61,135 bases of DNA from an uncultured Bacilli bacterium (lineage in GTDB: Bacteria > Bacillota_I > Bacilli_A > RF39 > UBA660), in the NCBI GenBank assembly GCA_944358535.1, contig CALVRH010000004.1, positions 1 through 61,135 of the forward strand. Reading direction: 5' to 3'. The notes beneath the pieces were generated by a model, which saw only the letters and a program-made list of their open reading frames with translations, did not search any database and had not been told where the DNA came from. Positions 33,770 through 52,465 of the stretch are shown piece by piece. Both the position numbers and the translations under genes were made by a program. Position 1 is the stretch's first letter. Each line of letters begins with the position of its first letter.

Positions 33770-33776
33770 TTCCTTT

Positions 33777-34454
33777 TTAATTTAAAACTTTACCAATAAC
33801 TATTAATCTAGACTTCCATGAACCATTACTGCATGTACATAAAGTAATTAAACTATCATCATAACCAATACTTTCATTACTATTTATTAGACTATTTTTC
33901 AAAGCCATATTCATATAACTTTCAAAATCATCTAAAGATTCGAAATTAATTGGTAACTCTTCCTTAGTCGCATCCGCTATATAAACAGCTACAATCGACA
34001 CTTCAATCACTTTATCACTAGTATAAATTTTATAATTTGAATGATTCTTATAAAATTCAAAAGACTTATAATTAAGTAAATCACTAAACATTGTACCGTT
34101 ATTAAAATTATGGCCATATATAATCGTATTCTTATCATTAAACCCATTGTTTCGGTAATCTAAAAATATAGATCCCATTTTATTTCTATCACCATTTGGT
34201 AAATGTTTTAAATAATATGAATTATCCTCACCTTGCATAATTGGATAACTAATACTTGTATCAGGAATCTCAATATAACCAGTAGCTCCTTCATACTCAT
34301 TTTCTAATTTATTTATATCCTTTATATTAGTTGAGGGGAGCACATTTCTATAAAATGTCTCCCCTTCTTTCTTGTCTAAAGACTCCCAAGTAAATAAACT
34401 TAAAAATATTAGACAAATAACTAAACATAATATTACAGGTACTTTTCTAAGCAT
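33777..34454 (-). CDS. srtB: Class B sortase
   Basis: N-terminal TM anchor, NTIIYGHN, and the catalytic TLCTC motif. It overlaps the 3' end of the adhesin gene by 8 nt. Confidence 0.85.
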   Translation of the reverse strand: MLRKVPVILCLVICLIFLSLFTWESLDKKEGETFYRNVLPSTNIKDINKLENEYEGATGYIEIPDTSISYPIMQGEDNSYYLKHLPNGDRNKMGSIFLDYRNNGFNDKNTIIYGHNFNNGTMFSDLLNYKSFEFYKNHSNYKIYTSDKVIEVSIVAVYIADATKEELPINFESLDDFESYMNMALKNSLINSNESIGYDDSLITLCTCSNGSWKSRLIVIGKVLN

Positions 34455-37400
34455 GTTTTCTTTTTAATAAATAAACACTGAGCATTCCAAAAGCTATAGT
34501 TAAAATTCCATAAAGTGACGTATTATCACTACCACCAGTTTGTGGAATATTAGCTTTCTGATATGGTTTTTCAAACACATCTTTGTAATTCATAAATGAA
34601 CTAACATTTCCTTCTAAGCCAATAACTCCACCATCATTAGTAACTGATGTCTTATAACCATCACTATCTGCTTCAAGTTCGGTAACTTTATAGCTTGCTC
34701 CTACTGGTAAACCAATAATCGTAATAGACTCACCATGTTTTAATTTAATTATATCACCAGATTTAATAGTGCCAGTTTTACTTCCAATGTATTTATATTC
34801 ACCTTCTAAAACTTCACCATTTTCATCGTATAATATAACTTTAAAATTAAAGTATCTATCAGTCTCACCACTATTACCACCAACAGTTTTATCGATAGTT
34901 AAACTTCCTTCATTTTTCGTATTCGTAAATACTACCTTGTTTTCGTCAAAAGTAATTTTTCCTTTATCATTAGTAGCTGTAGTTTCATATCTGTCACTAT
35001 TAGCCTCTAACTCTGTAACTTCATATAAAGTTCCGTAAGGAAGTCCATTAATCGTAATCGATTCACCATGTTTTAACTTAATAGTATCACCAGATTTTAT
35101 AAAGCCCTCTTTAGAACCAGTATAATGGAAAGACTCTTCTAAAGGATTGCCATTTTTATCTGTTAAAATAACTTTAAAAGTAAAGTATCTATCAGTCTCA
35201 CCAGCATTACCAGCTACAACCTTACTAATAGTCAAATTACTATCTTCAAGGGTATTAGTAATAGTGTAGTTTTTATCATCAACTGTACTTTCACTACTAT
35301 ACTCTTCATTATAATGTTCTGGTACCGCTTCCTCTATAGTATAATCATAACGATTATGATTTTCATCATATTTAGCTAATCTTTCAAAAGAAGCTTGCCA
35401 ATTATTACTACTACTCAAAGTAACTGATTTCTTTTGACCATTTTCATAAACATAATCATTATTGCGTTTTAAATAAACTGTAATTGAATCAGGTCTATTT
35501 TCATAGTCATTATCATTCCAAACCTTAGTAACATTTATATTAATCATTGAATATTCATTACCAACCTCAAAAGTTTTTACTTGATAATATTGTTCAATAC
35601 TATCTGGATATTCAATTCCATCATTTCCTGGATATACAAAGTAATATACCGTCGTATCTAAAATATAACCATCTACAGTTTTAGACTCAACTAATTTATA
35701 TACACTATCATAATTAATACCACTATAACTAGCATATCCATCATCTTTAGTTTTTAATGTAGAAACTAAATTTTCTTCACCAGTTAACTCAAAAGTATTA
35801 CCACTACCAGTAAAGCCTAATTCATATAAATTAAACTCAACATCAGCAAGTGGTGTATTCTTATCACCATCTTTATATTTATATACATAAATCATTTGTG
35901 AATTTCCTGAAGAAGTAGCTGAGCTTTCTAAAACTTCACCTTTCAAAATCAATTCACTTTCAGCGGAATTTTCATCATAACCAGATAAATTAACTCTATT
36001 AAAAGCATTATCTTCGTTTAACTCTTCGCCAGCACTTAATGTAACTCTAGCCTTATATGTGATTATTAATGATTCACTGTCAGGAACATGAAGCGTTAAC
36101 ATATGAGTCTCTTGATTCCATTCATAACTATCAGGATCTGCAGCTTCACCATTAATCTTTAAACTTCCTCTAATAAATTCTAAAGCTGAACCCATTTCAT
36201 CATCCAAAACTAAAGTGTCAGAATCTTTATCAATATCAGCCTTACCCTCATTAACCTTTATAGTATATTCTACTTCTGGTGCCGTATAAGTATTATAGAC
36301 TGCTGTTTTATCAAGTAACTGAGTAACTTTACCTGTAATAGATTCTTCTACATCTGGATATGTATAACCATTAATTGTAATATTAGCCTTGTTAGTATAA
36401 GTCTTTTGATCAGCAAAAATATCAGTTAACCTGCTATCGTATAAAATAGATGCTCCAGCACTATTCGCACTAAGCTCATCAATATAATCATCTAAATCAA
36501 ATATTAACTTACCATCTTCAAGTTTTGGTTCAAGTTTATAAGGTGTATAAGGATTATAATTTAACACTAATTTTGCAGAGCCTTCCACATATTCCATACC
36601 ATCAGGAATAGTATCTGTTACATAAGTATCCTTAACATCTTTAGGTAACCTATCAATTTTAATCTCCCATCTAGCAATACCTGTTTTACTAAAGTTATCG
36701 CTAAAATTATTCAAATACTTTTGAATATAATTGTCTTTCTTATTATACTCATATTTACCTGTAGATGATTTTCCTTCACCATCTACAGTAACAGTAGATG
36801 TATTATAAAATGTTTTTGATTCACTGTTATCAAATGTCGTATCATAAGAAATATTTAACTCTTTACCTAGTTCAATATTACCAAAATCAATTGTAAATTC
36901 TGTCTTACTTGCATTATATTCTAGCTTAGGATTTGTAGTTTCATTAATAGAAGTATCATTAACTTTTACAGTAGTTACATCTAATGTTAAGCCATCACCT
37001 AAAACATCTTTAAAGGAAACCTTTTTTTGTTTTCCATCGATATTAGGTATTGTTACCTTTGTATTCCAGTGAATAACTCCTTCCCTGTCATCTGCACTTT
37101 TAACATATTTAGAAATAGTTACTCCAGGAACAAGACCAACAGTCGCATCATCAGATACACTATGATTTTCCCCAACATAAATTGTAGCTTCGTTATATAA
37201 CTCAGTTTGTTCACCAGTTGCTTTTGTTTTAAATGTAATTTTGTATACTTTTTGTCCTGTCGCATCTTCTGCAAAAGTATAACCTTTTTGTAACTTATCA
37301 GCTGTAATAGTTAATTCAGAATCATGATAACTAGAACCATTATCATCACTTTCGGTAACTGTTATATCACCTGTAATTTCTTGACCATCAGCAATAACGT

Positions 37401-38562
37401 CTTTTAACGTTACACCTTTTTCTCCCGGTTTTACTGTAATAGTCCAAACTGCAGTATGATCACTAAGATTATCTCTACCATCTTTAGATACATCTGCTTT
37501 ATAAGTACTAACTAACGCAGTAGCTGTAATTTCATTTGGAAGTTCATCACTTTTAACTCTTGCTGTATTTCTTAAATCATTATCAGTAGAGCTACTAATA
37601 AATCCACCATCTAAAACATTGGCTCTATAAGTTATGGTTACGACATCACCTTTATTTAACTTATCAATTGTATAAACAAAGCCAGTTGTTCCATTAATAG
37701 TAGGTTTAATTTTATCAGTCATATCTTGAACATTTTGATTACTATCAGCCTTTGTAATCTTAAATGAATCAGTGATAAGCTCTAAATACTGACCCATTGA
37801 ATCAGTAATGACCACATTGGTATTATCAGTTATCGCAGTTACTTCAACTTTAAACTCATAAGTATCAGTATCAATCTTTTCAACTGATTTATGAATTCTT
37901 AAAGCACTAGTTGGTTTAACATTGATTATAACTGTTCCAACACCAGGAATTTCTAAATCAATCCTACCTCCATCGCCACCACCTATAGCACTTTCAGTAA
38001 TCTCACCTGATACATTTAAAGTACCAGTAATATTACTTAATTTTAAAAACTCTTCATCAGTATACCTAATAGTTACTTGATTTCCAGAAATAGTATAAAC
38101 ACCGACAGCCTCGGCCCCATTTCTTATCACTCCATTTTGGACATTAGTAAATGTAAATCCAGCTGGAAGTTCATAACTAAAAGTATTTTCTGTGGTCCAA
38201 TCTGTTGTATTTGGCAAAGACCACTCTAAATGAATGTCAATAACATCTCCATATTCGACAGTATCCTTAAAGTCTTCATCAACTTTTGTGCCGTCAATAG
38301 TAAAATAACTATTTTCATTCAAATAATCTGCCAAATTATAGTTTCCTACTTCACGAACAAAATGTGAAGTACTTAACTTCTGTATGCCATTCTGGTTAGA
38401 ATTAAATATTGTGTTAATCTGGTTGCCATTAAGAGCTATATTGCTCTCATTTGAAGCCATTTTTAAACTAGGATTATCATGGTTAACTCCAAAATTTAAA
38501 AATAGGCTGACACAAAGTGCTAGTAGTAAACATGCCACCCCTAGACAGTTTTTTACTTTCAT
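34447..38562 (-). CDS. Cell-wall-anchored adhesin with a Cna-type collagen-binding-like A region, CnaB/prealbumin-like B domains and a duplicated C-terminal pilin-like domain
   Basis: Signal peptide. CnaB block VTKVWNDNDYENRPDSITVYL. Two ~110-aa tandem repeats (GETDRYF.FKVIL...KLKHGESITI.GLP). Sorting signal IPQTG (34534-34548) plus a TM segment plus KRKHA. Confidence 0.85.
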   Translation of the reverse strand: MKVKNCLGVACLLLALCVSLFLNFGVNHDNPSLKMASNESNIALNGNQINTIFNSNQNGIQKLSTSHFVREVGNYNLADYLNENSYFTIDGTKVDEDFKDTVEYGDVIDIHLEWSLPNTTDWTTENTFSYELPAGFTFTNVQNGVIRNGAEAVGVYTISGNQVTIRYTDEEFLKLSNITGTLNVSGEITESAIGGGDGGRIDLEIPGVGTVIINVKPTSALRIHKSVEKIDTDTYEFKVEVTAITDNTNVVITDSMGQYLELITDSFKITKADSNQNVQDMTDKIKPTINGTTGFVYTIDKLNKGDVVTITYRANVLDGGFISSSTDNDLRNTARVKSDELPNEITATALVSTYKADVSKDGRDNLSDHTAVWTITVKPGEKGVTLKDVIADGQEITGDITVTESDDNGSSYHDSELTITADKLQKGYTFAEDATGQKVYKITFKTKATGEQTELYNEATIYVGENHSVSDDATVGLVPGVTISKYVKSADDREGVIHWNTKVTIPNIDGKQKKVSFKDVLGDGLTLDVTTVKVNDTSINETTNPKLEYNASKTEFTIDFGNIELGKELNISYDTTFDNSESKTFYNTSTVTVDGEGKSSTGKYEYNKKDNYIQKYLNNFSDNFSKTGIARWEIKIDRLPKDVKDTYVTDTIPDGMEYVEGSAKLVLNYNPYTPYKLEPKLEDGKLIFDLDDYIDELSANSAGASILYDSRLTDIFADQKTYTNKANITINGYTYPDVEESITGKVTQLLDKTAVYNTYTAPEVEYTIKVNEGKADIDKDSDTLVLDDEMGSALEFIRGSLKINGEAADPDSYEWNQETHMLTLHVPDSESLIITYKARVTLSAGEELNEDNAFNRVNLSGYDENSAESELILKGEVLESSATSSGNSQMIYVYKYKDGDKNTPLADVEFNLYELGFTGSGNTFELTGEENLVSTLKTKDDGYASYSGINYDSVYKLVESKTVDGYILDTTVYYFVYPGNDGIEYPDSIEQYYQVKTFEVGNEYSMININVTKVWNDNDYENRPDSITVYLKRNNDYVYENGQKKSVTLSSSNNWQASFERLAKYDENHNRYDYTIEEAVPEHYNEEYSSESTVDDKNYTITNTLEDSNLTISKVVAGNAGETDRYFTFKVILTDKNGNPLEESFHYTGSKEGFIKSGDTIKLKHGESITINGLPYGTLYEVTELEANSDRYETTATNDKGKITFDENKVVFTNTKNEGSLTIDKTVGGNSGETDRYFNFKVILYDENGEVLEGEYKYIGSKTGTIKSGDIIKLKHGESITIIGLPVGASYKVTELEADSDGYKTSVTNDGGVIGLEGNVSSFMNYKDVFEKPYQKANIPQTGGSDNTSLYGILTIAFGMLSVYLLKRKHA

Positions 38563-38590
38563 ACACTCCTCACTTTCTGTCGTGCTACTT

Positions 38591-38618
38591 ATTATAACAA
38601 ATAATATTCAAAATTCAA
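38591..38618 (-). promoter_or_regulatory. Promoter of the adhesin-sortase operon (TTGAAT-16-TGtTATAAT)
   Basis: Read on the minus strand, about 30 nt upstream of the GAGGAG RBS. Confidence 0.5.
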
Positions 38619-38730
38619 TAAAAATGTACAAAAAAGTATAAAAAATCGAAAAAAAATTGTATAAAGTAGCCCGCCAAAAATAATTTATGCATTAAGTGAG
38701 TATTATTGCACAAAAAAATATTCCCACAAA

Positions 38731-38778
38731 AAAAGCCATAAAGAAAACCCTTTGAAAATCAAAGAAATTCAAAGGGTT
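38731..38778 (-). terminator. Intrinsic terminator
   Basis: Minus strand AACCCTTTGAA-11 nt loop-TTCAAAGGGTT followed by TTCTTTATGGCTTTTTTT. Confidence 0.7.
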
Positions 38779-38874
38779 ATAAATAAGCAAAGTCCAAAAG
38801 AGAAACCTTAACGAATTAAAAACCTGATCTCCCAGGTGGGCATCACATCACCAGCTTTAGGATCCTTTAATAAA

Positions 38875-38937
38875 TTAAAGTATTCTACACCACCAGTGAA
38901 TTAGATTCCCAATCGTTATACTTAGTAGGTTTTTCAT
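38875..38937 (-). CDS. Candidate 20-aa hydrophobic peptide MKNLLSITIGNLIHWWCRIL (below the ORF-track threshold)
   Basis: Translated by hand. It lies between an extended -10 promoter and the terminator at 38731-38778. The SD is weak (AAGAAGAA). Confidence 0.2.
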   Translation of the reverse strand: MKNLLSITIGNLIHWWCRIL

Positions 38938-38964
38938 AGCGGTATTCTTCTTTTAGACAATTAA

Positions 38965-38973
38965 ATTATATCA
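38965..38973 (-). promoter_or_regulatory. Extended -10 element TGATATAAT just downstream of the CYTH gene stop
   Basis: Read on the minus strand. There is no clear -35. Confidence 0.35.
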
Positions 38974-39021
38974 TATATATATCTTTTTTTCTAGCATCTT
39001 TACAAAACTTCACATTATTTT

Positions 39022-39597
39022 TCATAATATATTTTTTAAAGCATCATAGGCTTTTCTAACAAAATAATCACTTGCATCAATTTTTAAATCATATTCCTTT
39101 AAAATATTTTTCATCTCATCAATCGTATCTCCATTATTATTTTCTAAAAGTAAATTCTTTTGTTCCATCTCTACATAAGTTCCAATACCTTTAACATCTT
39201 GAATATAAATTTCATTTTTTCCATTACTCATTAAAACATTATGATCACTTATTTCAAATAATTTTTTATAGCCGATAGCTTTCATAAAATCATAAGCTTT
39301 ATGAATATCAGTAATTGGGCATTTAACTGACTCTTGTTTTATTATTTCTCCATTTCCATTTACTTCTTTATGTTTTAAAACAAGCATTTTTCTTTTACCA
39401 ACCGTTTCTCTAATTAAAACATAATTAGAAAAAATAACTTCTTCATTTTCTAAAGACACTTCCACATCATCCTTAACCAAATAAATATCATTTAAAATAA
39501 AATTTTCTTGTTCGTGAAAGCCTTTTTTAATCATATCATCATAAAGTTCATTAAAAGATACCAAAGACCTTACACAAATTTCTAATTCTTCTTTCAT
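39022..39597 (-). CDS. CYTH-domain protein (triphosphate tunnel metalloenzyme / class IV cyclase-like), copy 2
   Basis: 191 aa. N-terminal ELEIC in place of ExExK, an LIRE block in place of the RxR strand, and a C-terminal GTYVEMEQ strand typical of CYTH/CyaB. Confidence 0.65.
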   Translation of the reverse strand: MKEELEICVRSLVSFNELYDDMIKKGFHEQENFILNDIYLVKDDVEVSLENEEVIFSNYVLIRETVGKRKMLVLKHKEVNGNGEIIKQESVKCPITDIHKAYDFMKAIGYKKLFEISDHNVLMSNGKNEIYIQDVKGIGTYVEMEQKNLLLENNNGDTIDEMKNILKEYDLKIDASDYFVRKAYDALKNIL

Positions 39598-39599
39598 AA

Positions 39600-40319
39600 T
39601 TACCTCACACTTTCAAATCCTAATTTTTTAATTTCTAAAACATCAACATTATCACCCATATGCATACAAAAAATTCTCTTCCTATCTTCAAAAGCAATTA
39701 ATTTAGCCAAATCATCTAATTGCATATGTGATTTGTAACCATCTGTTGCCACTTCGTGATACATAACTTTAATTTTCTTATCTTTAAACTTCTCTAATAT
39801 TATATCACTTATGGTGCACGTATCGCCACTGTAAAAGAAATTATCATTATCATTAATCACATGATACCCATAACTTGGCATTGGTATAATTTCACCATTA
39901 TCTCCAACATCACCATGCAATTGTTCGTATTCTTTAATATAATATCCTTCAATTTCCTTAGGCGTTTTTACATTATAAAGTTTTTCATCAATACCATATA
40001 TATCTAATAACATATAAGGAAGCCTCTTAATTGGAAATATTATATTCACTTCCCTTACTTTTTTAAATCTTAAATAAAAAACCAAACTGCCCAAACTCCC
40101 AACATGATCACTGTGAAAATGAGTAATAACAATATCAACCCTTTTAATCTTTTCAGTTATAATATTTAACTTTAAAATTTCATGAAAAACGGTTTCTCCA
40201 GAGTCAAACAAAAGTATTTCATCATTTTTTAAATAATAGTAAGCCGAATTATTTACATATTTTGTAGAAAAAGCTCCACCCGTTCCAATAAACTTAAGTA
40301 TCTGTCTCATTCTAACCAC
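39600..40319 (-). CDS. MBL-fold metallo-hydrolase (RNase Z/PhnP/cyclic-nucleotide phosphodiesterase-like)
   Basis: HFHSDHVG (HxHxDH) motif plus downstream His/Asp ligands. 239 aa. It overlaps the upstream gene by 8 nt. Confidence 0.8.
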   Translation of the reverse strand: MVRMRQILKFIGTGGAFSTKYVNNSAYYYLKNDEILLFDSGETVFHEILKLNIITEKIKRVDIVITHFHSDHVGSLGSLVFYLRFKKVREVNIIFPIKRLPYMLLDIYGIDEKLYNVKTPKEIEGYYIKEYEQLHGDVGDNGEIIPMPSYGYHVINDNDNFFYSGDTCTISDIILEKFKDKKIKVMYHEVATDGYKSHMQLDDLAKLIAFEDRKRIFCMHMGDNVDVLEIKKLGFESVR

Positions 40320-41787
40320 CTAGCTTCCTTCTAAGCACTTTAGCCCAACTTATTTCATTCTTATAATTTTGAAGCTTTCCATCATTTATTACATAATCAA
40401 AATCATAATCTCCGCTTGTTTTATAAAGAATTTTTCTATCATCTGATTGATAAATACCGTCTTTTAAAGTTAAACCAAGTTCTAAAATAACCTTTTGAAT
40501 AGCATCTTCATCAAGTGAATGCTCTTTAACCCATTTTGCCTGCCTTGTTGTATCATCATCTCCAACTAATAACTTCTTTAATCTAACTTTTTTAATTGAT
40601 GGGTTGTTTTTTAAAAAATCATTTAACTGTAATGACAGATCAAAACATTCTAAATAATCCGTCAAAGCAATATCGCATTTTATATTTCCATTTCTAAATA
40701 ATAAACTCTTTAAATAATCATCACTATATCCAAGTACCTTCATATCAACATCAGAATTTAATGCTACTCTGAGAATTTCAAACTCTAGCGGTAAATCAGT
40801 AAGATTAAAAAGGCTAAATTTGTCTTCATCACTAAATATATTACCTGAAGAATGTACCCTAACTATTTCAAACAAATTTCTATATTTGATTAAACATTCT
40901 TTTATTAATTTTAAATCATCTAAAGAATAAAACGATGGTTCTCCATTTCCACTGAGAACAAACCTTTTAAATTTTATATCATTTTCCAAAAGCTCCTTTA
41001 AAATTTCATCCAAAGATTCTAAATTATCGCAGGTAGAAAACTTTTGATTATTTTTAGCAATACAATATGGACAGTTTTTATTGCACATATAGGAACCTAA
41101 AATTAATGTCAAATTATTAAAATATACAAAGTCATTATTTAAAATTCCAACTACTTTATCTAAGACCTCATTCTTAGATAAATTTGTAGTATCGATAGTT
41201 TGGGTAAAATCATATTTTTCCCAAAAACCACTATCTTTTTCTTTTTGATCACGTTCCTTTAATTTTTTAAAAGTAACTTCATAATTCTCGCCATTCATCA
41301 ACATTTTTCTTTTAACTCTCTCGTCAAAATCAGTTTCTAAAAAAATATGATAATCTACTTCTGGATAAGCCACAACTGGTCTTCTCGCATTAAGCAAAAC
41401 ATTACTTTCACATTTTAAATCATCCACTATACCTCTTAAAGCTTCATTTAAAGAATCACCGACAATTGATCCAACCATCACTGTATCCATATTCATTTTT
41501 GGAGTATTTAAAACCTCAGAACTATAAAAATTACCATTAATCCCTACTTCTACTTTATTACAGATAATTTTATAAGTAAGATCAATCTGTTGCAGTTTTC
41601 CACTTAAAATGAACTTTCTAATACCATCTTCATCTAAAGATAGTTCGTTTATTAAATAATAAGTAAGTGGTCTAAATAAAAAACCAAAATCAAAATAGAT
41701 TAACTCATTACCCCTTTTTAATAGCTCTTCACTTATAGTAGTTTTCCCACTTCCAGAATAACCACTAATTGCAATCACCTTATACAT
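40312..41787 (-). CDS. Fusion protein: N-terminal cytidylate-kinase-like domain (~aa 1-215) plus a C-terminal radical SAM domain (~aa 225-491)
   Basis: P-loop GYSGSGKTT, FDFGFLFR (compare Cmk LDTGAMYR), NARRP...IFLETDFDERVKRK and KERD blocks aligning with Cmk. CNKNCPYC (CxxxCxxC, about nt 41062-41085), SGNGEPS, and a C-terminal YVINDGKL motif. Confidence 0.8.
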   Translation of the reverse strand: MYKVIAISGYSGSGKTTISEELLKRGNELIYFDFGFLFRPLTYYLINELSLDEDGIRKFILSGKLQQIDLTYKIICNKVEVGINGNFYSSEVLNTPKMNMDTVMVGSIVGDSLNEALRGIVDDLKCESNVLLNARRPVVAYPEVDYHIFLETDFDERVKRKMLMNGENYEVTFKKLKERDQKEKDSGFWEKYDFTQTIDTTNLSKNEVLDKVVGILNNDFVYFNNLTLILGSYMCNKNCPYCIAKNNQKFSTCDNLESLDEILKELLENDIKFKRFVLSGNGEPSFYSLDDLKLIKECLIKYRNLFEIVRVHSSGNIFSDEDKFSLFNLTDLPLEFEILRVALNSDVDMKVLGYSDDYLKSLLFRNGNIKCDIALTDYLECFDLSLQLNDFLKNNPSIKKVRLKKLLVGDDDTTRQAKWVKEHSLDEDAIQKVILELGLTLKDGIYQSDDRKILYKTSGDYDFDYVINDGKLQNYKNEISWAKVLRRKLGG

Positions 41788-41951
41788 ATTTCCTCCTCCA
41801 ATTTAAATGTATCACAAATTAAACTGCCAGAAAAATACCAATAATTTATACAAATATAACTAATAATCATTCATATAAAAAGTTTTTAAAACAATATACT
41901 TTCTAGTAATTGCCATTAAAAAAAGTAATAAAAAAATAACATTTTTTCATG

Positions 41952-42845
41952 TTATTTCAAATATTCATCTATAAAACGTCTAGGTGCTTCAGTTAAATTT
42001 CTTTCTTTACATATTAAATTCAAAGATATTTCAGGGAGTTCCTCGTATATTTTTATCTCTTTTAAATTACCGCATTCAATATCACTCTTAACCATATCCC
42101 TCAAAATATAACCTATTCCAAGGCCTTTTTTTACCATACTATAAATAAGCTCACTTGTTTCTATCGAAAGAACATTATTGAAAATAGTATTGTTTTCTTT
42201 AGCCAAATTATTTAAATATTGTCTATGTGAGCTATGAGAAACCGGCAATATTAATGGTAGTGATTCTAAATCTTTTAAATGATATTTTTCTCCTTTAGGT
42301 AAAATATTTAAATCAGGCAAAACTATAAAAGTATGCGTAAAAGTATCTAAAGGTTTTACATCAAAACCATCTAATTCATCTTTTGCCGAAACAGAATCCA
42401 AAACAAAATCAAGTTCATTATTAGAAAGCATTCTAAGTAACTCACTACTAGGCCTATCAATAATAACAATATCAATCTTATTATATTTTTCGTGAAAAGT
42501 CGCAATCTTATCAAGTAAATAAAATGAAGCCACATTAGATCTTACACCAATAGATAAAGAACCCTTTTCTAAATTCTTATTTTCCATCATCTTCTTCTCT
42601 GCTTGTCTAAAATTTCCTAAAGCTTCTTCTACTAACCCATATAGTTCCTTACCTTTATCAGTTAAAATAATACCATTTAAGGTTCTATAAAACAGCATTG
42701 CATTAAGTTCGCTTTCTAAATTTTTAAGTGCTTTACTTATTGCCGGCTGTGACAAATACATATTTTTTGCAGCATCTGAAATACTATGATATTGTGCAAC
42801 TTCATAAAAAATTCGATATAAATTTAAATTGATATTCTTATACAT
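41952..42845 (-). CDS. LysR-family transcriptional regulator
   Basis: N-terminal wHTH (SISDAAKNMYLSQPAISKALKNLE) plus a LysR substrate-binding domain. 297 aa. Confidence 0.9.
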   Translation of the reverse strand: MYKNINLNLYRIFYEVAQYHSISDAAKNMYLSQPAISKALKNLESELNAMLFYRTLNGIILTDKGKELYGLVEEALGNFRQAEKKMMENKNLEKGSLSIGVRSNVASFYLLDKIATFHEKYNKIDIVIIDRPSSELLRMLSNNELDFVLDSVSAKDELDGFDVKPLDTFTHTFIVLPDLNILPKGEKYHLKDLESLPLILPVSHSSHRQYLNNLAKENNTIFNNVLSIETSELIYSMVKKGLGIGYILRDMVKSDIECGNLKEIKIYEELPEISLNLICKERNLTEAPRRFIDEYLK

Positions 42846-42860
42846 TTTTACATCCTTTCT

Positions 42861-43613
42861 TTAAATTAAAGACTTAATTTCCTCATCCTTACCATTTTCA
42901 CTATAAATAAGTTTACCTGAGCTTAAAACAATAATATGTTTTCTCTCCATTTCTTTTAAACCGTGAATAATAATCTTAAAATTCTGTTTTCTGTTTTTAA
43001 AATTTTTAGTAAATTCATTAAATTGTTCATCAGTTATTGATAAACTATCTTTTTCTTTATAAGCCTTCCCCCTAATCGGTAAAAACCTAATTATCTTCCA
43101 ATAATCTATATCATACTTACAAATTTCATCATAAAATTCATCCATAAAGTCAATATTGCCATTAAATAGAACTGTATTTAATTGTAATATTATATTAGGA
43201 TTAATCTGCTTGAATTTCTTTAAAAGTTTTGAAACATGAGCATAATAATCTTTTCCTATACCATATTTTTCGTTCAAATCCTCAGAAATAAAGTCTAAAG
43301 AAATAATTAGCTGGTCAACATTTTGAATCTTTTCTTCCAAATTATCCTCATCAACGGTTGTTAAATTGGTATTAACAGAATTAATAATTCCATACTCTTT
43401 ACTTTTCTTTAATAAATGAGGCAAATCTTTATATAAAAAAGGTTCGCCACCAGTCCATGAAATCTTTTTCACACCTAGTTTAAATAAATTATCTAAAACC
43501 TTTTCATTTTCCTCTAAAGTCAAATCTTCCCTATTAAACTTAAAACAATATCTGCAATTTCTATTACATTTGCTTGTTATATTGTAGCATACTTTCATGA
43601 TTACTCCCTTCAA
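42861..43613 (-). CDS. Radical SAM protein, viperin-like
   Basis: YNITSKCNRNCRYCF...LTLEE...KISWTGGEPFL parallels the viperin N(Y/W)H(F/I)T..CN..C.FCF...L.LEE...KI.F.GGEPFL core. 250 aa. An alternative start is at 43598. Confidence 0.7.
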   Translation of the reverse strand: MKGVIMKVCYNITSKCNRNCRYCFKFNREDLTLEENEKVLDNLFKLGVKKISWTGGEPFLYKDLPHLLKKSKEYGIINSVNTNLTTVDEDNLEEKIQNVDQLIISLDFISEDLNEKYGIGKDYYAHVSKLLKKFKQINPNIILQLNTVLFNGNIDFMDEFYDEICKYDIDYWKIIRFLPIRGKAYKEKDSLSITDEQFNEFTKNFKNRKQNFKIIIHGLKEMERKHIIVLSSGKLIYSENGKDEEIKSLI

Positions 43614-44145
43614 ACTTTAATTCTTTTATTTTAAGTAAATCAATACCATATATTTCATTATAAATAGATGTCACATCTAAAGTAGTTGCATCATCTAAAG
43701 TATATCCAAGCATTTCTAAAGCCATAACAACATCTTCATTTGTTTTACCCTCTATTTCGGCGTATGTTGGTATCAAAGGCCAAGAATCAATAGAAATTTC
43801 TACATTGTCCAGAGAATAAATAATTCGGTAATTTTCTTGATAATTACGATATCTATATCCAAGTTCCTTTAAAATATCATTCATAACATCAAAATCACCA
43901 ACAACCGTTTCTAATTCCATAGTTCCATCTATAGCTGTTTTATCTTTGATTTCCTTAATTGTCAAAGTCGTTTTTTTACCATTTGTCCTAAGCCTAATCC
44001 ATTTATTAGGCAATATCGGATTAAAGTCATATGTATATCTTCTTTGCAAAAATTCATCTTTTTTTACTGCTCCATGTTTAAGTAAATTTTTAGTAAATTT
44101 CTTTATATCAATATTAAGAATAGTAGCCTCTCTTTCTTTAGTCAT
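43564..44145 (-). CDS. CYTH-domain protein (class IV adenylate cyclase CyaB-like), copy 1
   Basis: EREAT at the N-terminus (ExExK with K replaced), WIRLRT, MELET and YAEIEG strands. The start was set to the ATG at 44145, behind GGAGGG (the track starts 4 codons earlier). Confidence 0.72.
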   Translation of the reverse strand: MTKEREATILNIDIKKFTKNLLKHGAVKKDEFLQRRYTYDFNPILPNKWIRLRTNGKKTTLTIKEIKDKTAIDGTMELETVVGDFDVMNDILKELGYRYRNYQENYRIIYSLDNVEISIDSWPLIPTYAEIEGKTNEDVVMALEMLGYTLDDATTLDVTSIYNEIYGIDLLKIKELKFEGSNHESMLQYNKQM

Positions 44146-44166
44146 AATACCCTCCATTTCTTCTAT

Positions 44167-44195
44167 ATTATACCTTACTATTTGTTTTTTTTAAA
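44167..44195 (-). promoter_or_regulatory. Candidate promoter of the CYTH/radical-SAM cluster (TTTAAA-17-TATAAT)
   Basis: Read on the minus strand immediately upstream of the RBS. Confidence 0.45.
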
Positions 44196-44504
44196 GTATA
44201 ATAATATAATTAAAAATCATAGATATATAATTTTTTCATATAGAAAGTAAAGGAGAGAAAATTAATCAGTTTAGTCTACCTATTGTTTCATCTTATTCAC
44301 CTATTTATGACTGGTAATGCTTATCATGACACCCTCCACAATAGCAGTTCCAAAGTAATTTATAAAATCTCTTATTACATAATTAAATTGTTTCATTCTT
44401 ATAACTTATGAAATATTGTAATTTATTTTAACTTCCTCTTGAAATTTTATATTGATTTTATATTCTATGTTGGTTGACCGTGTGAATATTTTCAAAACTA
44501 GTAT

Positions 44505-45332: not shown

Positions 45333-46259
45333 TTAATGCCTCATTAAAGAATTTTCTTTATAAACTTTTATTTTCTTTTTACTATCAAAACGTGCTATAT
45401 CTTGAACCGCATCATCAAGATCATGAAGTCCAACTAAACTCTCACTAATATGACTAGCAACAGAATCAATAAAATGTGATGAAGAAATATATTCCTCACA
45501 CAAATCATCACTATAAGTTTGTAATTCAGAAACAGGAGACTTTAAAGCTTTTTTAATTTCTTCAAAATCAATACTATCCATAAATATTTTCTTATTAAAA
45601 GCTTTACTACACTCTGGCGATAAAAAAGTTTTTCTAATTGCCTCTCTATATTGATCAATATATTTATCTTCATCATCAGTCTCACCAAATATATCAATCA
45701 ATTCAGCAATCACCTCTCTTACGCAATCGCCACTATATTCAGATGGATAAATTGCTTCATCTATCTCATCAATCGTATATATAGGTTTTTTTATAAAACA
45801 GTCTTCTAACCCATTATTATCTATCTCACCAATAAACATGGTATTAGTAATATCACAAAGGTGATTATCATAAGTAAAAGTTTTAGAAGAAATTATTGAA
45901 TTTAAAGTAGCAAAACCCCCATAAAGAAAAACATCTCTCATATCATGTACTAAAATAATCCCTCTATAGCCCTGACGATTATTTTCAATAAATAATCTCG
46001 AAAAAGCATTATAAAGTACAAACGGTTCTACCCCCTGTGGTGTGAATAATCCAGAAATTCCAACCAATGGTATATTCATCTTATGAGCAGTTTGCTCCAC
46101 CATTGTTGTTTTACCACTACCAAGTTCTCCAACCAATAAAATATTTTTAGGATGAGATAATTTCTTATTACGATCTATCGTCCAAACCAATTCTTTCAAA
46201 GCTTTATCTTGATTACAAAGCAAATCACATAAATCATTATATACATCTTTTACTTCCAT
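45333..46259 (-). CDS. ClpX-like AAA+ protein, paralog B (degenerate Walker B and sensor 2)
   Basis: NQDKALKELVW...KNILLVGELGSGKTT aligns with ClpX (GQE.AK..L...KSNILLIGPTGSGKT). GIILVHDMRD stands in place of hhhhDEID. There is no zinc-binding N-domain. Confidence 0.6.
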   Translation of the reverse strand: MEVKDVYNDLCDLLCNQDKALKELVWTIDRNKKLSHPKNILLVGELGSGKTTMVEQTAHKMNIPLVGISGLFTPQGVEPFVLYNAFSRLFIENNRQGYRGIILVHDMRDVFLYGGFATLNSIISSKTFTYDNHLCDITNTMFIGEIDNNGLEDCFIKKPIYTIDEIDEAIYPSEYSGDCVREVIAELIDIFGETDDEDKYIDQYREAIRKTFLSPECSKAFNKKIFMDSIDFEEIKKALKSPVSELQTYSDDLCEEYISSSHFIDSVASHISESLVGLHDLDDAVQDIARFDSKKKIKVYKENSLMRH

Positions 46260-46277: not shown

Positions 46278-47225
46278 TTAATTCTTATGTGAAACTAACA
46301 AAGAACCCTTTTTTAACACTTTTTCATTATTTTGATAATCGCGAGAAACAACTTCTTCAATCACCCTTGATGCTGAATGTAAACCTTCCCCACTTTCCAA
46401 AACATAATAAGCAATCTTTTTAATAAAGCTATCGGAATTAATATACTCCTCTGTCAAATCATTTCTATATAAATTTAAAACTGACAAAGGAGAATTAATA
46501 GCTTTTATTATATTATCAGTATCCATATCATCCATATAAATTTTGGTTTTAAAAACTTCTTCACAAGTAGATGATAAAAATCTATATTTAATTTGATCAG
46601 CCATATACTTTTCAAATCTCACATTAACACTTTTATTACCACTTGAATCTATATGTACCTCATTAGCCTTAGTCAAATATTTTTTTACCATATTTAATGT
46701 AGGAGAAACAAAATTATCACTATCTAAATCTGACAAATCATCCATACTAGACATAAAAATATCTCTAACATTATTAATATCTATCTCACCAACAAAAGTT
46801 ATACTAGAAATATCATAATATCCTTCATCTCCAAGATCTATTATTCCAGAAGCCAGCATACTATTAAACCACATACTATGTCCATATAAAAAGCAATCTT
46901 GAAAATCATGTAATAATAAAACGCCTCTATCAGTTCCGTCACCATTCATCATCATTTTGTAAATTCCACTTAAAAATAAACGTGAATTTATACCATTAGG
47001 AGAAAATAAATTATAAATCTCTCCTAATGGTATATCCATTAATTCAGTAATTTCTTTTAGCATCGTAGTTTTACCTGAACCACGCTCGCCAATCAGTAAA
47101 ATATTTTGTTTAAAATTCATTTTCAAATCAAAATTTTTATAAAGTACCCAAACTAATTTTCTAAGTGCTTCATCCTGTATACCTATATTATCTTTTAAAA
47201 GTTCATAAAATAATATCTCATTCAT
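46278..47225 (-). CDS. ClpX-like AAA+ protein, paralog A (degenerate Walker B and sensor 2)
   Basis: GIQDEALRKLVW...QNILLIGERGSGKTT, GVLLLHDFQD, and C-terminal SGEGLHSASRVIEEVV (compare ClpX TGARGLRSIVE). Confidence 0.6.
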   Translation of the reverse strand: MNEILFYELLKDNIGIQDEALRKLVWVLYKNFDLKMNFKQNILLIGERGSGKTTMLKEITELMDIPLGEIYNLFSPNGINSRLFLSGIYKMMMNGDGTDRGVLLLHDFQDCFLYGHSMWFNSMLASGIIDLGDEGYYDISSITFVGEIDINNVRDIFMSSMDDLSDLDSDNFVSPTLNMVKKYLTKANEVHIDSSGNKSVNVRFEKYMADQIKYRFLSSTCEEVFKTKIYMDDMDTDNIIKAINSPLSVLNLYRNDLTEEYINSDSFIKKIAYYVLESGEGLHSASRVIEEVVSRDYQNNEKVLKKGSLLVSHKN

Positions 47226-50971: not shown

Positions 50972-52465
50972 GGTTCTATAATAAATAGTGTTGGTGAGTA
51001 AAATTTCACCGACACTGTTTTTATATAAAAAACGAGTCACTAACCAGAAACTCATGATAAAATATTAATTGGATAAATATCGAAAGGATCTGATTAAATG
51101 ACTCATACTGATTATATCAAATTAATGTTAAATATTAAAGATGATAATGTTTATTTTTATGAAAACTGTTTAGAAATTGTTAATATTAATGGTAAAAATA
51201 CTAAAGTTTTTAATGCTTTTCTTACTTATATTCCAAAATGTTGTCCTAAATGTGGATGTATTAATGAAGGACATGATGACATTATTAATTGGGGTTTCAA
51301 AAGAAATTGTCATATTAAATTAACTAAAGTTTGTGGTTATGATACTATTCTTAGTCTTGATAAACAAAGATTTAAATGTAAGCATTGTAATAGAACTTTT
51401 ATTGCTTCTACTTCTATTGTTGATTTCCATAAACAAATATCTAATGATACTAATTTAAATATTAAATTAGAATTAATGCAGAAAGGTACTGAAAAGGATA
51501 TTGCTAGAAGAAACAACGTTTCTACTAATCATGTTAATAGAGTTTTAGATAGTATTTCAGAAGATAAACTTGTTAAAAATAATGGCTTTTTACCTGAAGT
51601 TTTAGGTATAGATGAGTTCAAAGCCACCAAAGATACTAAATCTAAAATGGCTCTTATTATTGTAGACCAAGTACGTGCCAATATATTTGATATTAATAAT
51701 TCTAGATTATCTAAAGATATTGAATCTTACTTTAATATGTATCCAAAAAAAGAAAGAGACAAAGTTAAATTTATTACTATTGATTTATACAAACCATATT
51801 ATAAATTACTTAAAAGAATATTTAAAAATGCTATTTTAATTCCTGATAGATTTCATATTGACCTGCAAGTTAGAGATGCTTTAGATAATACTAGAAAAAA
51901 ACTATGTATTAAATCTAATCCTAATTATAGAAAACTTAAAAAATACTGGAAATTAATACTTAAAAATGAAGATGAATTATCTGAAAAAAAACAATATTCC
52001 AAATGTTTTAAAAAAGAAGTTTCACAAATTGATATTGTAACTTATTTGATTAATACAGATGAAGAATTTTATAATACTTATCAAGTTTATCAAGGTATTA
52101 TAAAAGCTATTGATACTAGAGATAAAGACAAGTTTTTAAACATTATTCATCACCACGACAAAAACATTTCTAAATACATGAAAAAAGCCTTAAAAACTTT
52201 TAGAAATATGGAAAAATATATTGTCAACGCTTTTGACTATGAATATTCAAATGGAAGAACTGAAGGCATGAATAACCTTATCAAGCAAATTAAACACACT
52301 GCTTGTGGTTATAGAAAATTTAAACATTTAAAAGCTAGAGTTATGCTTATTAAAGGTTTACTTAATCCAATTAAAGCATATTAAAAGAAGACCAATTTTT
52401 GGTCCTCTTAACAAGTTCATTTATCATTAGTTTTTTGTTCCACCAACACTACTTGACATTGAACC
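50972..52465 (+). mobile_element. ISL3-family insertion sequence, 1494 bp, apparently intact
   Basis: Terminal inverted repeats GGTTCtATaataaaTAGTGTTGGTG / GGTTCaATgtcaagTAGTGTTGGTG (20/25 match), a single transposase ORF, and an 8-bp TSD. Confidence 0.88.
51098..52384 (+). CDS. ISL3-family transposase
   Basis: 428 aa. N-terminal zinc-finger Cys pairs (CPKCG...CKHC), HTH, a DDE region with GIDEF...ITIDLYKPY, and a C-terminal SNGRTEGMNNLIK motif. Confidence 0.9.
   Translation: MTHTDYIKLMLNIKDDNVYFYENCLEIVNINGKNTKVFNAFLTYIPKCCPKCGCINEGHDDIINWGFKRNCHIKLTKVCGYDTILSLDKQRFKCKHCNRTFIASTSIVDFHKQISNDTNLNIKLELMQKGTEKDIARRNNVSTNHVNRVLDSISEDKLVKNNGFLPEVLGIDEFKATKDTKSKMALIIVDQVRANIFDINNSRLSKDIESYFNMYPKKERDKVKFITIDLYKPYYKLLKRIFKNAILIPDRFHIDLQVRDALDNTRKKLCIKSNPNYRKLKKYWKLILKNEDELSEKKQYSKCFKKEVSQIDIVTYLINTDEEFYNTYQVYQGIIKAIDTRDKDKFLNIIHHHDKNISKYMKKALKTFRNMEKYIVNAFDYEYSNGRTEGMNNLIKQIKHTACGYRKFKHLKARVMLIKGLLNPIKAY

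Follow-up and report, generated by a model that had tools for sequence, protein, structure and literature searches.

A LysR-linked accessory cluster in an uncultured Bacilli bacterium pairs a clamp-less viperin relative with a CYTH protein and fuses an orphan radical SAM enzyme to a nucleotide kinase

A 61,135-nucleotide stretch of DNA from an uncultured Bacilli bacterium (GenBank assembly GCA_944358535.1, contig CALVRH010000004.1, positions 1 to 61,135; about 27% G+C), referred to here as the window, carries six co-oriented genes on the minus strand between positions 39022 and 44157. The description that best fits the locus is that of a new accessory nucleotide-tailoring cluster linked to a LysR regulator, in which a sister family of viperin without the nucleotide clamp of that enzyme is paired with a CYTH hydrolase, and an orphan radical S-adenosylmethionine (SAM) enzyme is fused to a nucleoside monophosphate (NMP) kinase. 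In transcription order, the genes encode a triphosphate-tunnel (CYTH) protein (CYTH1, 43564 to 44157); a tail-less viperin-fold radical SAM enzyme (rSAM-A, 42861 to 43613); a LysR-family regulator (41952 to 42845); a 491-amino-acid protein in which a Cmk-like NMP kinase domain (residues 1 to 220) is joined to a second radical SAM domain, rSAM-B (residues 221 to 491; gene at 40312 to 41787); a 239-amino-acid phosphodiesterase of the metallo-β-lactamase (MBL) fold, homologous to Apyc1 (39600 to 40319); and CYTH2, a divergent CYTH-fold protein (39022 to 39597). CYTH1, rSAM-A, and LysR are termed module 1, and Cmk::rSAM-B, MBL, and CYTH2, the last gene of the cluster, are termed module 2.

All six reading frames were recovered at these coordinates in a check of the open reading frame (ORF) list, and Pfam, NCBIfam, and PADLOC profile searches agreed on the domain identities, with CYTH2 placed by the cyaB model and hhalign. 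The first-pass annotation of this DNA, which had listed six co-oriented genes with these domains between housekeeping genes, was borne out in this respect, as was its description of overlapping or abutting boundaries: the 3′ end of CYTH1 overlaps the start of rSAM-A by about 35 nucleotides (nt), and the fusion, MBL, and CYTH2 frames likewise overlap or abut. The most likely start of rSAM-A is the ATG at 43598, which would give a protein of 245 amino acids, because all homologues are 244 to 250 amino acids long. The most likely start of CYTH1 is at 44145 (193 amino acids). The same annotation had proposed a nucleotide-modification pathway under a dedicated LysR regulator, which is reasonable given that all the partners are nucleotide or phosphate enzymes. 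The form of this idea that we favour, at about an even chance, is an accessory, LysR-controlled, two-module pathway with a kinase step, radical modification, and phosphate trimming.

The assignment of rSAM-A to the viperin fold is supported at the level of motifs, profiles, and predicted structure. The protein scored 77.9 bits on Pfam Radical_SAM and carries the cluster-binding motif CNRNCRYC (CxxxCxxC) together with GGEPF. Its best specific NCBIfam match was viperin_w_prok (NF038283) at 128.4 bits, compared to 66 bits for MoaA; the PADLOC models of prokaryotic viperin (pVip) gave 126 to 133 bits, and a sequence search of the PDB also placed viperins closest. An AlphaFold2 (AF2) model with a predicted local distance difference test (pLDDT) score of 95 had the viperins 5vsl, 6q2p, and 9dfn as top Foldseek matches, with query-normalized TM-scores (TMq) of 0.83 to 0.88 and E values of about 1e-15. 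The 18 best PDB fold matches were all viperins or viperin-like proteins (TMq, 0.80 to 0.88; 22 to 28% identity), ahead of SuiB, SkfB, DesII, BlsE, and MoaA. None of the competing families that the first-pass annotation had named for such a domain (MoaA, QueE, NrdG, and SPASM maturases) was the best match of rSAM-A, which was to viperins. The family is also discrete, consisting of about 80 clusters scoring at least 275 bits, with the next score at only 85 bits.

The same searches located what rSAM-A does not share with viperin. Its scores fall below the viperin cutoffs (128.4 versus 180 bits for NF038283 and 63.4 versus 450 bits for TIGR04278), and matches to viperin models stop at positions 250 of 281, 233 of 262, and 310 of 347, or 29 to 37 positions short, at the point where the protein itself ends. 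Viperins of all kingdoms are reported to have a disordered C-terminal tail of 20 to 30 residues, in which a conserved Arg/Tyr clamp (R346/Y350 in the human enzyme) holds the terminal phosphate of the nucleoside triphosphate (NTP), and replacement of these residues with Ala abolishes activity (bioRxiv 10.64898/2026.09.10.750538). The mouse viperin sequence was taken from a PDB alignment, for which the query was the human sequence, and was then aligned to 31 members of the rSAM-A family. All 31 members lacked the last ~40 viperin residues, including the clamp, and nine residues of the β8 loop. At the mouse positions that we take to be the basic residues lining the triphosphate site (K120, R194, K220, R245, and K247), R194 was an invariant Ile in the rSAM-A family, K220 was a Gln in 29 of 31 members, and R245 was a Tyr, Cys, or Ser; K247 was kept and invariant, and K120 was mostly kept. 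The nucleobase-binding residue of the β8 loop is an Asn in most prokaryotic viperins and C314/K319 in the mouse enzyme; as judged from the sequence alignment, this loop is nine residues shorter in the rSAM-A family, and the C314 column is a gap. Just before CxxxCxxC, at the position of viperin N77, a fourth cysteine (C4) was invariant in all 31 members.

Together, the below-cutoff scores, the absent clamp, and the replacement of R194, K220, and R245 mean that the synthesis of 3′-deoxy-3′,4′-didehydro-NTPs (ddhNTPs) from NTPs by rSAM-A cannot be assumed. We infer from these alignments that rSAM-A may perform viperin-like radical chemistry on a substrate bound in a manner unlike that of the NTP in viperin, either one with fewer phosphates or one held by a partner protein. 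Defence annotators based on pVip hidden Markov models (HMMs) would probably label rSAM-A a viperin, and this label would overstate the sequence support.

The alternative that survives best, though we consider it unlikely, is that the locus is a canonical pVip antiphage system, in which Cmk would supply CTP or another NTP, rSAM-A and perhaps rSAM-B would convert it to a ddhNTP, and the CYTH and MBL proteins would modulate or detoxify the product. The pVip and viperin_w_prok matches and the predicted fold of rSAM-A agree with this, as do the dispensability of the cluster in a congener (described below) and the relationship of the MBL protein to a family from the phage-host arms race. Linkage of viperin to a kinase is also known, with kinases near 12% of bacterial viperins, and the cluster resembles both pVip-kinase pairs and the vertebrate viperin/CMPK2 pair in that a viperin-fold radical SAM enzyme with CxxxCxxC and GGEP motifs is genetically linked to an NMP kinase. 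However, rSAM-A is about 40 to 50 residues shorter than these viperins, and the ~30 to 40 C-terminal residues it lacks include the Arg346/Tyr350 clamp, the mutation of which abolishes ddhNTP synthesis; the R194-to-Ile, K220-to-Gln, and R245-to-Tyr replacements and the shortened base-binding loop point the same way. The kinase belongs to the Cmk type, to which CMPK1 is related, rather than being CMPK2- or thymidylate kinase-like, and it is fused not to the viperin-like rSAM-A but to rSAM-B, which is no viperin. Unlike pVip, the cluster sits in a housekeeping neighbourhood with a LysR regulator of the metabolite type, which is atypical for pVip systems. Housekeeping genes flank it in each context that was examined, its divergence follows that of those genes, and no defence genes were present in the neighbourhoods examined; PADLOC gave no match other than pVip on rSAM-A. 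A canonical pVip defence system that makes ddhNTPs is not supported as stated, and a LysR-controlled tailoring pathway remains the reading we prefer.

The second radical SAM domain was less readily placed. The fusion protein matched Pfam Cytidylate_kin (48.9 bits; cutoff, 26 bits) and Radical_SAM (29.2 bits), with its kinase domain scoring 46.5 bits on TIGR00017, below the 135.55 bits of that model, and about 47 full-length homologues of Cmk::rSAM-B were found. In an AF2 model of the fusion (pLDDT, 89), the N-terminal domain matched CMP kinases with target-normalized TM-scores (TMt) of 0.7 to 0.82 (0.76 to 0.82 for 2cmk and 4die), and a Foldseek search with the full model returned no close PDB fold match for the rSAM-B domain, only weak ones to EpeE and NosL. 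The motifs of rSAM-B, CNKNCPYC and SGNGEPS, are invariant in the family, so that the CxxxCxxC and GGEP/GNGEP signatures claimed for both radical SAM domains hold. The description of both as viperin-like holds for rSAM-A by profile, PDB sequence, and fold, and fails for rSAM-B: as a second viperin, rSAM-B was rejected on a score of 17.9 bits with the viperin model, and hhalign related it to rSAM-A only across the generic N-terminal half that binds the cluster and SAM. In the kinase-like domain, F34 and R136 are invariant in the family alignment. We equate these positions with S36 and D132, presumably the cytosine contacts of Escherichia coli Cmk, and because these positions are occupied by an invariant Phe and Arg, plain CMP would be an unlikely, or at least doubtful, kinase substrate.

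No named family accounts for rSAM-B, as NCBIfam and Pfam gave only sub-threshold generic matches. An HMM search of 1.84 billion representative proteins found 54 family members at an E value of ≤1e-30 and 273 at ≤1e-3, beyond which the next tier was an unnamed MoaA/viperin-like group. Fusion partners within the family are Cmk, NDT/SLOG-like domains, and a PRA-PH/MazG-like domain of ~80 residues, the latter two occurring at either end. Homologues occur on four viral contigs, two of which were annotated (L086 and L087, from IMG/VR; loci are cited by L numbers). In both, an rSAM-B-like gene is followed by one for an ~220-amino-acid protein resembling the core of class II aminoacyl-tRNA synthetases (L086, 5702 to 7459; L087, 5757 to 7468), and in L087 the rSAM-B homologue is preceded by an ~80-amino-acid MazG/PRA-PH-like ORF whose domain corresponds to phrog_6408; an unannotated ORF of 93 amino acids takes the corresponding place in L086. 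Taken together, the associations of the rSAM-B family point to a substrate that is a nucleotide or riboside and whose phosphorylation would be set and then reset.

Stand-alone homologues of rSAM-B, with 30 to 38% identity, were present in about 60 gut metagenome-assembled genomes (MAGs) of Alphaproteobacteria, Bacilli, Gastranaerophilales, and Tenericutes (L019 to L080). A representative operon (L020, 4534 to 8813) encodes NMNAT-like and CofE-like proteins, an unknown gene product, PnuC, an NDT-like protein, and the rSAM-B-like enzyme; a porin, a kinase-like gene (AAA_18 kinase-like), Ham1, Metallophos, or DHH genes lie 3′ of such operons. The PnuC-family transporter scored 70 bits against a curated cutoff of 42, and in Bacilli the operons often adjoin a related LysR gene (E value of about 1e-45). 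By its gene content, this operon would be an uncharacterised riboside-uptake and processing pathway with a radical SAM enzyme. The order of transporter, glycosidase-like, and radical SAM genes had prompted consideration of the queuine lyase QueL for rSAM-B and its stand-alone relatives, which was not supported: QueL, compared by description, acts on a free base, the queuosine literature held no link to PnuC or NDT, and no preQ1 riboswitch was present at the loci searched.

These operons argue for a metabolic role, in which an exogenous or damaged nucleoside or riboside would be phosphorylated, radically de-modified or converted, and dephosphorylated into usable pools, with no antiviral function. 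LysR regulators are typically metabolite sensors, the host genomes are about 1.5 Mb, and the housekeeping context and vertical descent of the cluster would suit such salvage or catabolism. Still, the idea appears quite improbable for the cluster itself: neither it nor its close relatives include a transporter gene, those homologues that are linked to a transporter are distant and may differ in function, and a viperin-like enzyme such as rSAM-A is not known to act in salvage. No riboswitch, RNA leader, or metabolite-specific signal was found in the window region or at 18 related loci, a congener manages without five of the six genes, and the queuosine salvage variant gained no support. A tailoring pathway is preferred to salvage, and its phosphate-processing steps would fall to the CYTH and MBL proteins.

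CYTH1 matched Pfam CYTH (PF01928; 26.9 bits, with a cutoff of 23.2) and had weak PDB matches to the archaeal triphosphate tunnel metalloenzymes (TTMs) 1yem and 7ns8. CYTH2 had no Pfam match and was aligned to the CYTH1 family profile by hhalign with 90.5% probability. Against cyaB (TIGR00318), CYTH1 and CYTH2 scored 41.8 and 38.7 bits, respectively (E = 8.5e-10 for CYTH2), compared to a cutoff of 57.95. Within the wider family that includes SaTTM, CthTTM, ThTPase, and CyaB, CYTH1 shares the ExEx, WxRxR, and ExE tunnel motifs: its own family has ExEx(T/K/R), an invariant KWIRLR, and ExE, and in the window protein the Lys of the canonical ExExK is a Thr. CYTH2 is a divergent homologue with degenerate motifs (ExExC, where Cys replaces the Lys, and YxLxR) and is ambiguous in class. 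CYTH1 always adjoins rSAM-A or, in Clostridia, is fused to Cmk, and CYTH2 co-occurs with rSAM-B in both Bacilli and Clostridia.

By the criteria of Vogt et al. (PMC8233210), class IV adenylate cyclases are marked by HF four residues ahead of ExExK and by a small neutral residue that substitutes for the central Arg of WxRxR, while thiamine triphosphatases have WxRxR, the Trp of which stacks on the heterocycle. The HF motif occurs in neither CYTH1 nor CYTH2, both of which begin directly at ExEx. Since CYTH1 also keeps KWIRLR with its central Arg and the ExE motif, it is, by these motifs, a hydrolase-type TTM with a ring-stacking Trp and no cyclase. Where the first-pass annotation described the tunnel proteins as CYTH and class IV cyclase-like, the CYTH assignment holds, and the cyclase-like character fails for CYTH1, whose motifs are those of triphosphatases. 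A reading of the CYTH1 WxRxR as that of a thiamine triphosphatase was set aside, there being no TPP riboswitches or thiamine genes nearby.

The MBL protein matched Lactamase_B and Lactamase_B_2 (the latter passing its threshold) and has an intact metal site, HFHSDH (HxHxDH). On the Pfam Apyc1 model (PF23023), it scored 41.7 bits against a cutoff of 50, over the N-terminal 90 residues only. A phmmer search of the PDB gave 99 bits to 7fct, an uncharacterised "metal beta-lactamase," 66 bits to Apyc1 7u2r over residues 8 to 226, and 64 bits to 7t28, and the Apyc1 matches were full-length, with E values of 1e-16 to 1e-17. It also matched the phage family phrog_392 (82 bits). Similar size, full-length homology, and the HxHxDH site liken this putative phosphodiesterase to the Apyc1/YhfI-type enzymes (PMC9117128), from which it differs in being host-encoded in a biosynthetic-looking operon and not in a phage antidefence locus. 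Bacterial Apyc1-like proteins cleave cyclic mononucleotides, and host copies have been suggested to regulate cyclic NMP (cNMP) signalling (Hobbs et al. 2022, PMC9117128). By analogy, a cyclic phosphodiester intermediate or signal in the pathway is plausible but unproven.

Taken further, this analogy would make the locus a signalling system in which a CYTH protein, as a class IV-type cyclase, makes a cNMP or modified cNMP, the radical SAM enzymes produce or change the signal, the MBL protein degrades it, and LysR or another factor reads it. The Apyc1 homology of the MBL protein, the suggestion of Hobbs et al. (PMC9117128) concerning host copies, the matches of both CYTH proteins to cyaB, and the apparent replacement of the central Arg of WxRxR in CYTH2 by a neutral, cyclase-like residue are in keeping with such a system. 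We consider it very unlikely: both proteins score below the cyaB cutoff, neither has the HF motif exclusive to class IV enzymes, CYTH1 retains the central Arg typical of hydrolases, and the cluster holds no recognisable cNMP receptor or effector. Other lineages, moreover, replace the MBL protein with PHP, NUDIX, or MazG-like hydrolases that are not cNMP specific.

The conservation of the cluster was surveyed by a pattern scan of one genome per species, which yielded 80 loci, followed by our own ORF calling and a phmmer survey. The nearest genome locus was L001 (OZ007022.1; 93% identity), and relatives include "Candidatus Coprosoma" and "Ventrenecus" MAGs. The colinear six-gene unit was intact in L001, L002, L003, L005, L008, L009, and L014 (53 to 93% identity) and in the metagenome contig L124; L013 has a rearranged version. 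A check of gene neighbourhoods, as the first-pass annotation had advised, thus found the six genes colinear in at least eight species of gut Bacilli. The flanks of the window cluster are shared only by L001, L002, and L005 among the loci with the unit, so the six genes stay linked in spite of different neighbourhoods, and their co-occurrence as a conserved unit is far beyond chance.

Comparison across loci also resolved the two modules. Module 1 occurs without module 2 in L081 to L083, and module 2 occurs without module 1 in L004, L007, and L125. In L082 (8095 to 9159), the place of module 2 after LysR is taken by three small ORFs (101, 67, and 192 amino acids) and a CitMHS transporter. Some Clostridia encode a CYTH1::Cmk fusion with separate rSAM-B, CYTH2, and a PHP phosphoesterase, and in another Clostridium Cmk::rSAM-B is followed by a NUDIX hydrolase within the dcw cluster. 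A CYTH gene adjoins close rSAM-B homologues in 17 of 19 loci, with the remaining 2 interrupted by contig ends, indicating that the evolutionary core is kinase, rSAM-B, and CYTH and that the additional phosphohydrolase is interchangeable. Cluster neighbours across the loci examined were aminoacyl-tRNA synthetase genes, 6S RNA, pyruvate phosphate dikinase (PPDK), and dcw genes. Between the window and L002 or L005, the cluster proteins are 60 to 87% identical and the flanking AspRS, HisRS, and PP-loop proteins (AspRS and HisRS being the aspartyl- and histidyl-tRNA synthetases) are 73 to 87% identical, which fits largely vertical inheritance at one chromosomal site and, with the housekeeping context, makes a classical defence island a weaker reading.

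Scanning metagenomes for the upstream PP-loop gene produced one congeneric contig, L127, that lacks window positions 39607 to 44494, comprising five of the six genes, with 79 to 80% nucleotide identity in both flanks. In L127, the terminator of the PP-loop gene is followed directly by promoter-like sequence, CYTH2, and 6S RNA. The boundary of the indel, set by this comparison at 44494/44495, places the non-coding region upstream of CYTH1 (44158 to 44494) within the missing block. The absence of the five-gene block at the same site shows that the cluster is dispensable and accessory, gained or lost as a block. A reading of the six genes as a chance adjacency, or as unrelated housekeeping functions sharing no pathway, could draw only on the housekeeping flanks and on a promoter no better than background, and it is effectively refuted by the shared order in at least eight species (including those where the flanks differ), the Cmk-rSAM-B and CYTH1-Cmk fusions, the overlapping frames, and the gain or loss of five genes as one block.

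CYTH2, the gene retained in L127, lies 60 nt from the 6S (SsrS) RNA gene downstream of it (38787 to 38962, minus strand; 53.6 bits, above the gathering score). The segment carrying both (window 38765 to 39606; L127, 7232 to 8081) is 93% identical, compared to 79 to 80% for either flank, which suggests recent recombination or unusually strong constraint. The pair is kept even where the other five genes are absent, and CYTH2 and 6S RNA may be co-transcribed. A second block of ~5 kb beside the cluster (33772 to 38764), a variable adhesin and sortase islet with a Cna-type LPXTG surface protein (34447 to 38562) and a sortase (33777 to 34454), is also missing from L127 and from L002.

Upstream of the cluster, the flanking housekeeping genes encode HisRS, AspRS, a pair of AAA-like paralogues, and a PP-loop ATPase. 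The paralogues (45333 to 46259 and 46278 to 47225, minus strand) are tandem P-loop/AAA-like proteins of ~310 amino acids with weak Pfam matches; they lie between AspRS and the PP-loop ATPase and are syntenic in L001, L002, L005, and L127. An ISL3-family transposase (DDE_Tnp_ISL3, 160 bits) is encoded ~7 kb upstream of the cluster (51098 to 52384, plus strand), and no link between it and the indel boundaries was made.

The regulator scored 63.8 bits on HTH_1 and 102.5 bits on LysR_substrate, both above cutoff, and reached no specific equivalog. No other protein of the cluster is as well conserved, and the LysR gene adjoins rSAM-A at every locus examined. Between the LysR and fusion genes is a 164-nt spacer (41788 to 41951, minus strand) with a hairpin and T-run after LysR, a TTATAT box, and a −10-like sequence, TGTGATACAT; several blocks of the spacer are conserved across eight species, down to about 55% protein identity. 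The hairpin, T-run, and conserved blocks indicate two transcription units, and the spacer is a candidate for a regulated internal promoter of module 2. Its box, TTATAT-N13-TTATAT (41854 to 41878, minus strand), recurs in seven loci, about 91 to 100 nt ahead of the fusion start, and a TTATAT-N15-TTATAT box (44204 to 44230, minus strand) lies upstream of CYTH1, so that two of the four boxes in the window lie on the coding strand within the promoter regions of the two modules. The TTATAT-N13/15-TTATAT box is thereby a candidate LysR operator. The −35/−10-like site at 44167 to 44195, which the first-pass annotation took as the cluster's own promoter, was rejected as a sign of an independent unit: matches to 10 of 12 consensus positions are not enriched above chance, with 34 found versus 45 expected.

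These domain identities, fusions, and linkages suggest the following course for the tailoring pathway, whose step order, substrate class, and radical chemistry are inferred. The Cmk-like domain would phosphorylate a nucleoside monophosphate, probably one other than plain CMP, and pass the nucleotide to the fused rSAM-B, where a 5′-deoxyadenosyl radical would alter the nucleoside polyphosphate at its sugar or base. The phosphate chain would next be shortened by CYTH2 and the Apyc1-like MBL protein, or cyclised and opened again by them. A second radical step would come from module 1, with rSAM-A probably catalysing hydrogen abstraction from, or dehydration of, the ribose. CYTH1, translationally coupled to rSAM-A, might shorten a triphosphate to make or clear the substrate or product of rSAM-A; alternatively, it might give rSAM-A a triphosphate grip in trans. 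LysR would sense a precursor or product and control both promoters through the shared TTATAT-N13-15-TTATAT boxes. The role of such a pathway would more likely be an antimetabolite or antiviral nucleotide than core metabolism.

A bolder version can be advanced only tentatively. In it, rSAM-B would found a new family of nucleotide-modifying radical SAM enzymes that is always wired to kinases and phosphohydrolases, and rSAM-A and CYTH would form an obligate pair in which CYTH replaces the clamp or resets the phosphates. The joint product would be a modified nucleotide or nucleoside other than a ddhNTP, and this LysR-controlled chemistry, serving an antimetabolite or a signal, would be new.

Several points weigh against the tailoring pathway. 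None of these proteins or their families has a characterised substrate or product, and rSAM-B is without a characterised homologue, its nucleotide substrate being assigned through guilt by association. Many of the supporting domain matches, such as the NDT-like and PRA-PH ones, are sub-threshold in Pfam, though they recur in independent proteins, and the comparison of Cmk active sites uses presumed contact residues of the E. coli enzyme. The TTATAT box is AT rich and its count is not by itself significant (4 in the 61-kb window versus 1.7 expected), and L125 carries the box with no LysR gene nearby. Lastly, if a CYTH cyclase supplied the substrate of an MBL cNMP phosphodiesterase, the cycle would be futile unless the cyclic species itself served as a signal.

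Partial precedents exist for a radical step combined with phosphate processing. In oxetanocin biosynthesis, the radical SAM enzyme OxsB remodels deoxyadenosine phosphates and the phosphohydrolase OxsA trims the phosphates to give a nucleoside analogue; OxsB is cobalamin dependent, OxsA is an HD-domain protein, and neither is homologous to the cluster proteins. For rSAM-A and CYTH1, the precedent consists of four eukaryotic fusions that join a viperin-type enzyme to a domain for processing phosphate chains, described as "triphosphatase or cyclase." Those are full-length viperins within one polypeptide, whereas the window encodes a tail-less homologue and a separate, translationally coupled bacterial CYTH protein. 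The claim that the combination was previously undescribed is qualified by these fusions and otherwise held, in that the literature searches, outside of which several key viperin papers fell, returned no paper on this gene combination, on viperin with CYTH, or on PnuC with a radical SAM enzyme, and no CYTH protein described as a dedicated radical SAM partner.

There is practical interest in new modified nucleotides, both as antivirals and as signals in conflicts between phages and their hosts. For rSAM-B, an unannotated radical SAM family of abundant, uncultured, genome-reduced bacteria of the human and animal gut and of some phages, the fusion partners and variable phosphohydrolase neighbours supply a hypothesis open to expression tests. 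Viperin is a well-studied antiviral mechanism common to bacteria and humans, treated as a family with the single function of making ddhNTPs. A sister family that has kept the viperin core, lost the clamp, and gained a CYTH partner and a regulator would show that this scaffold has been re-purposed and could reveal new radical chemistry on nucleotides.

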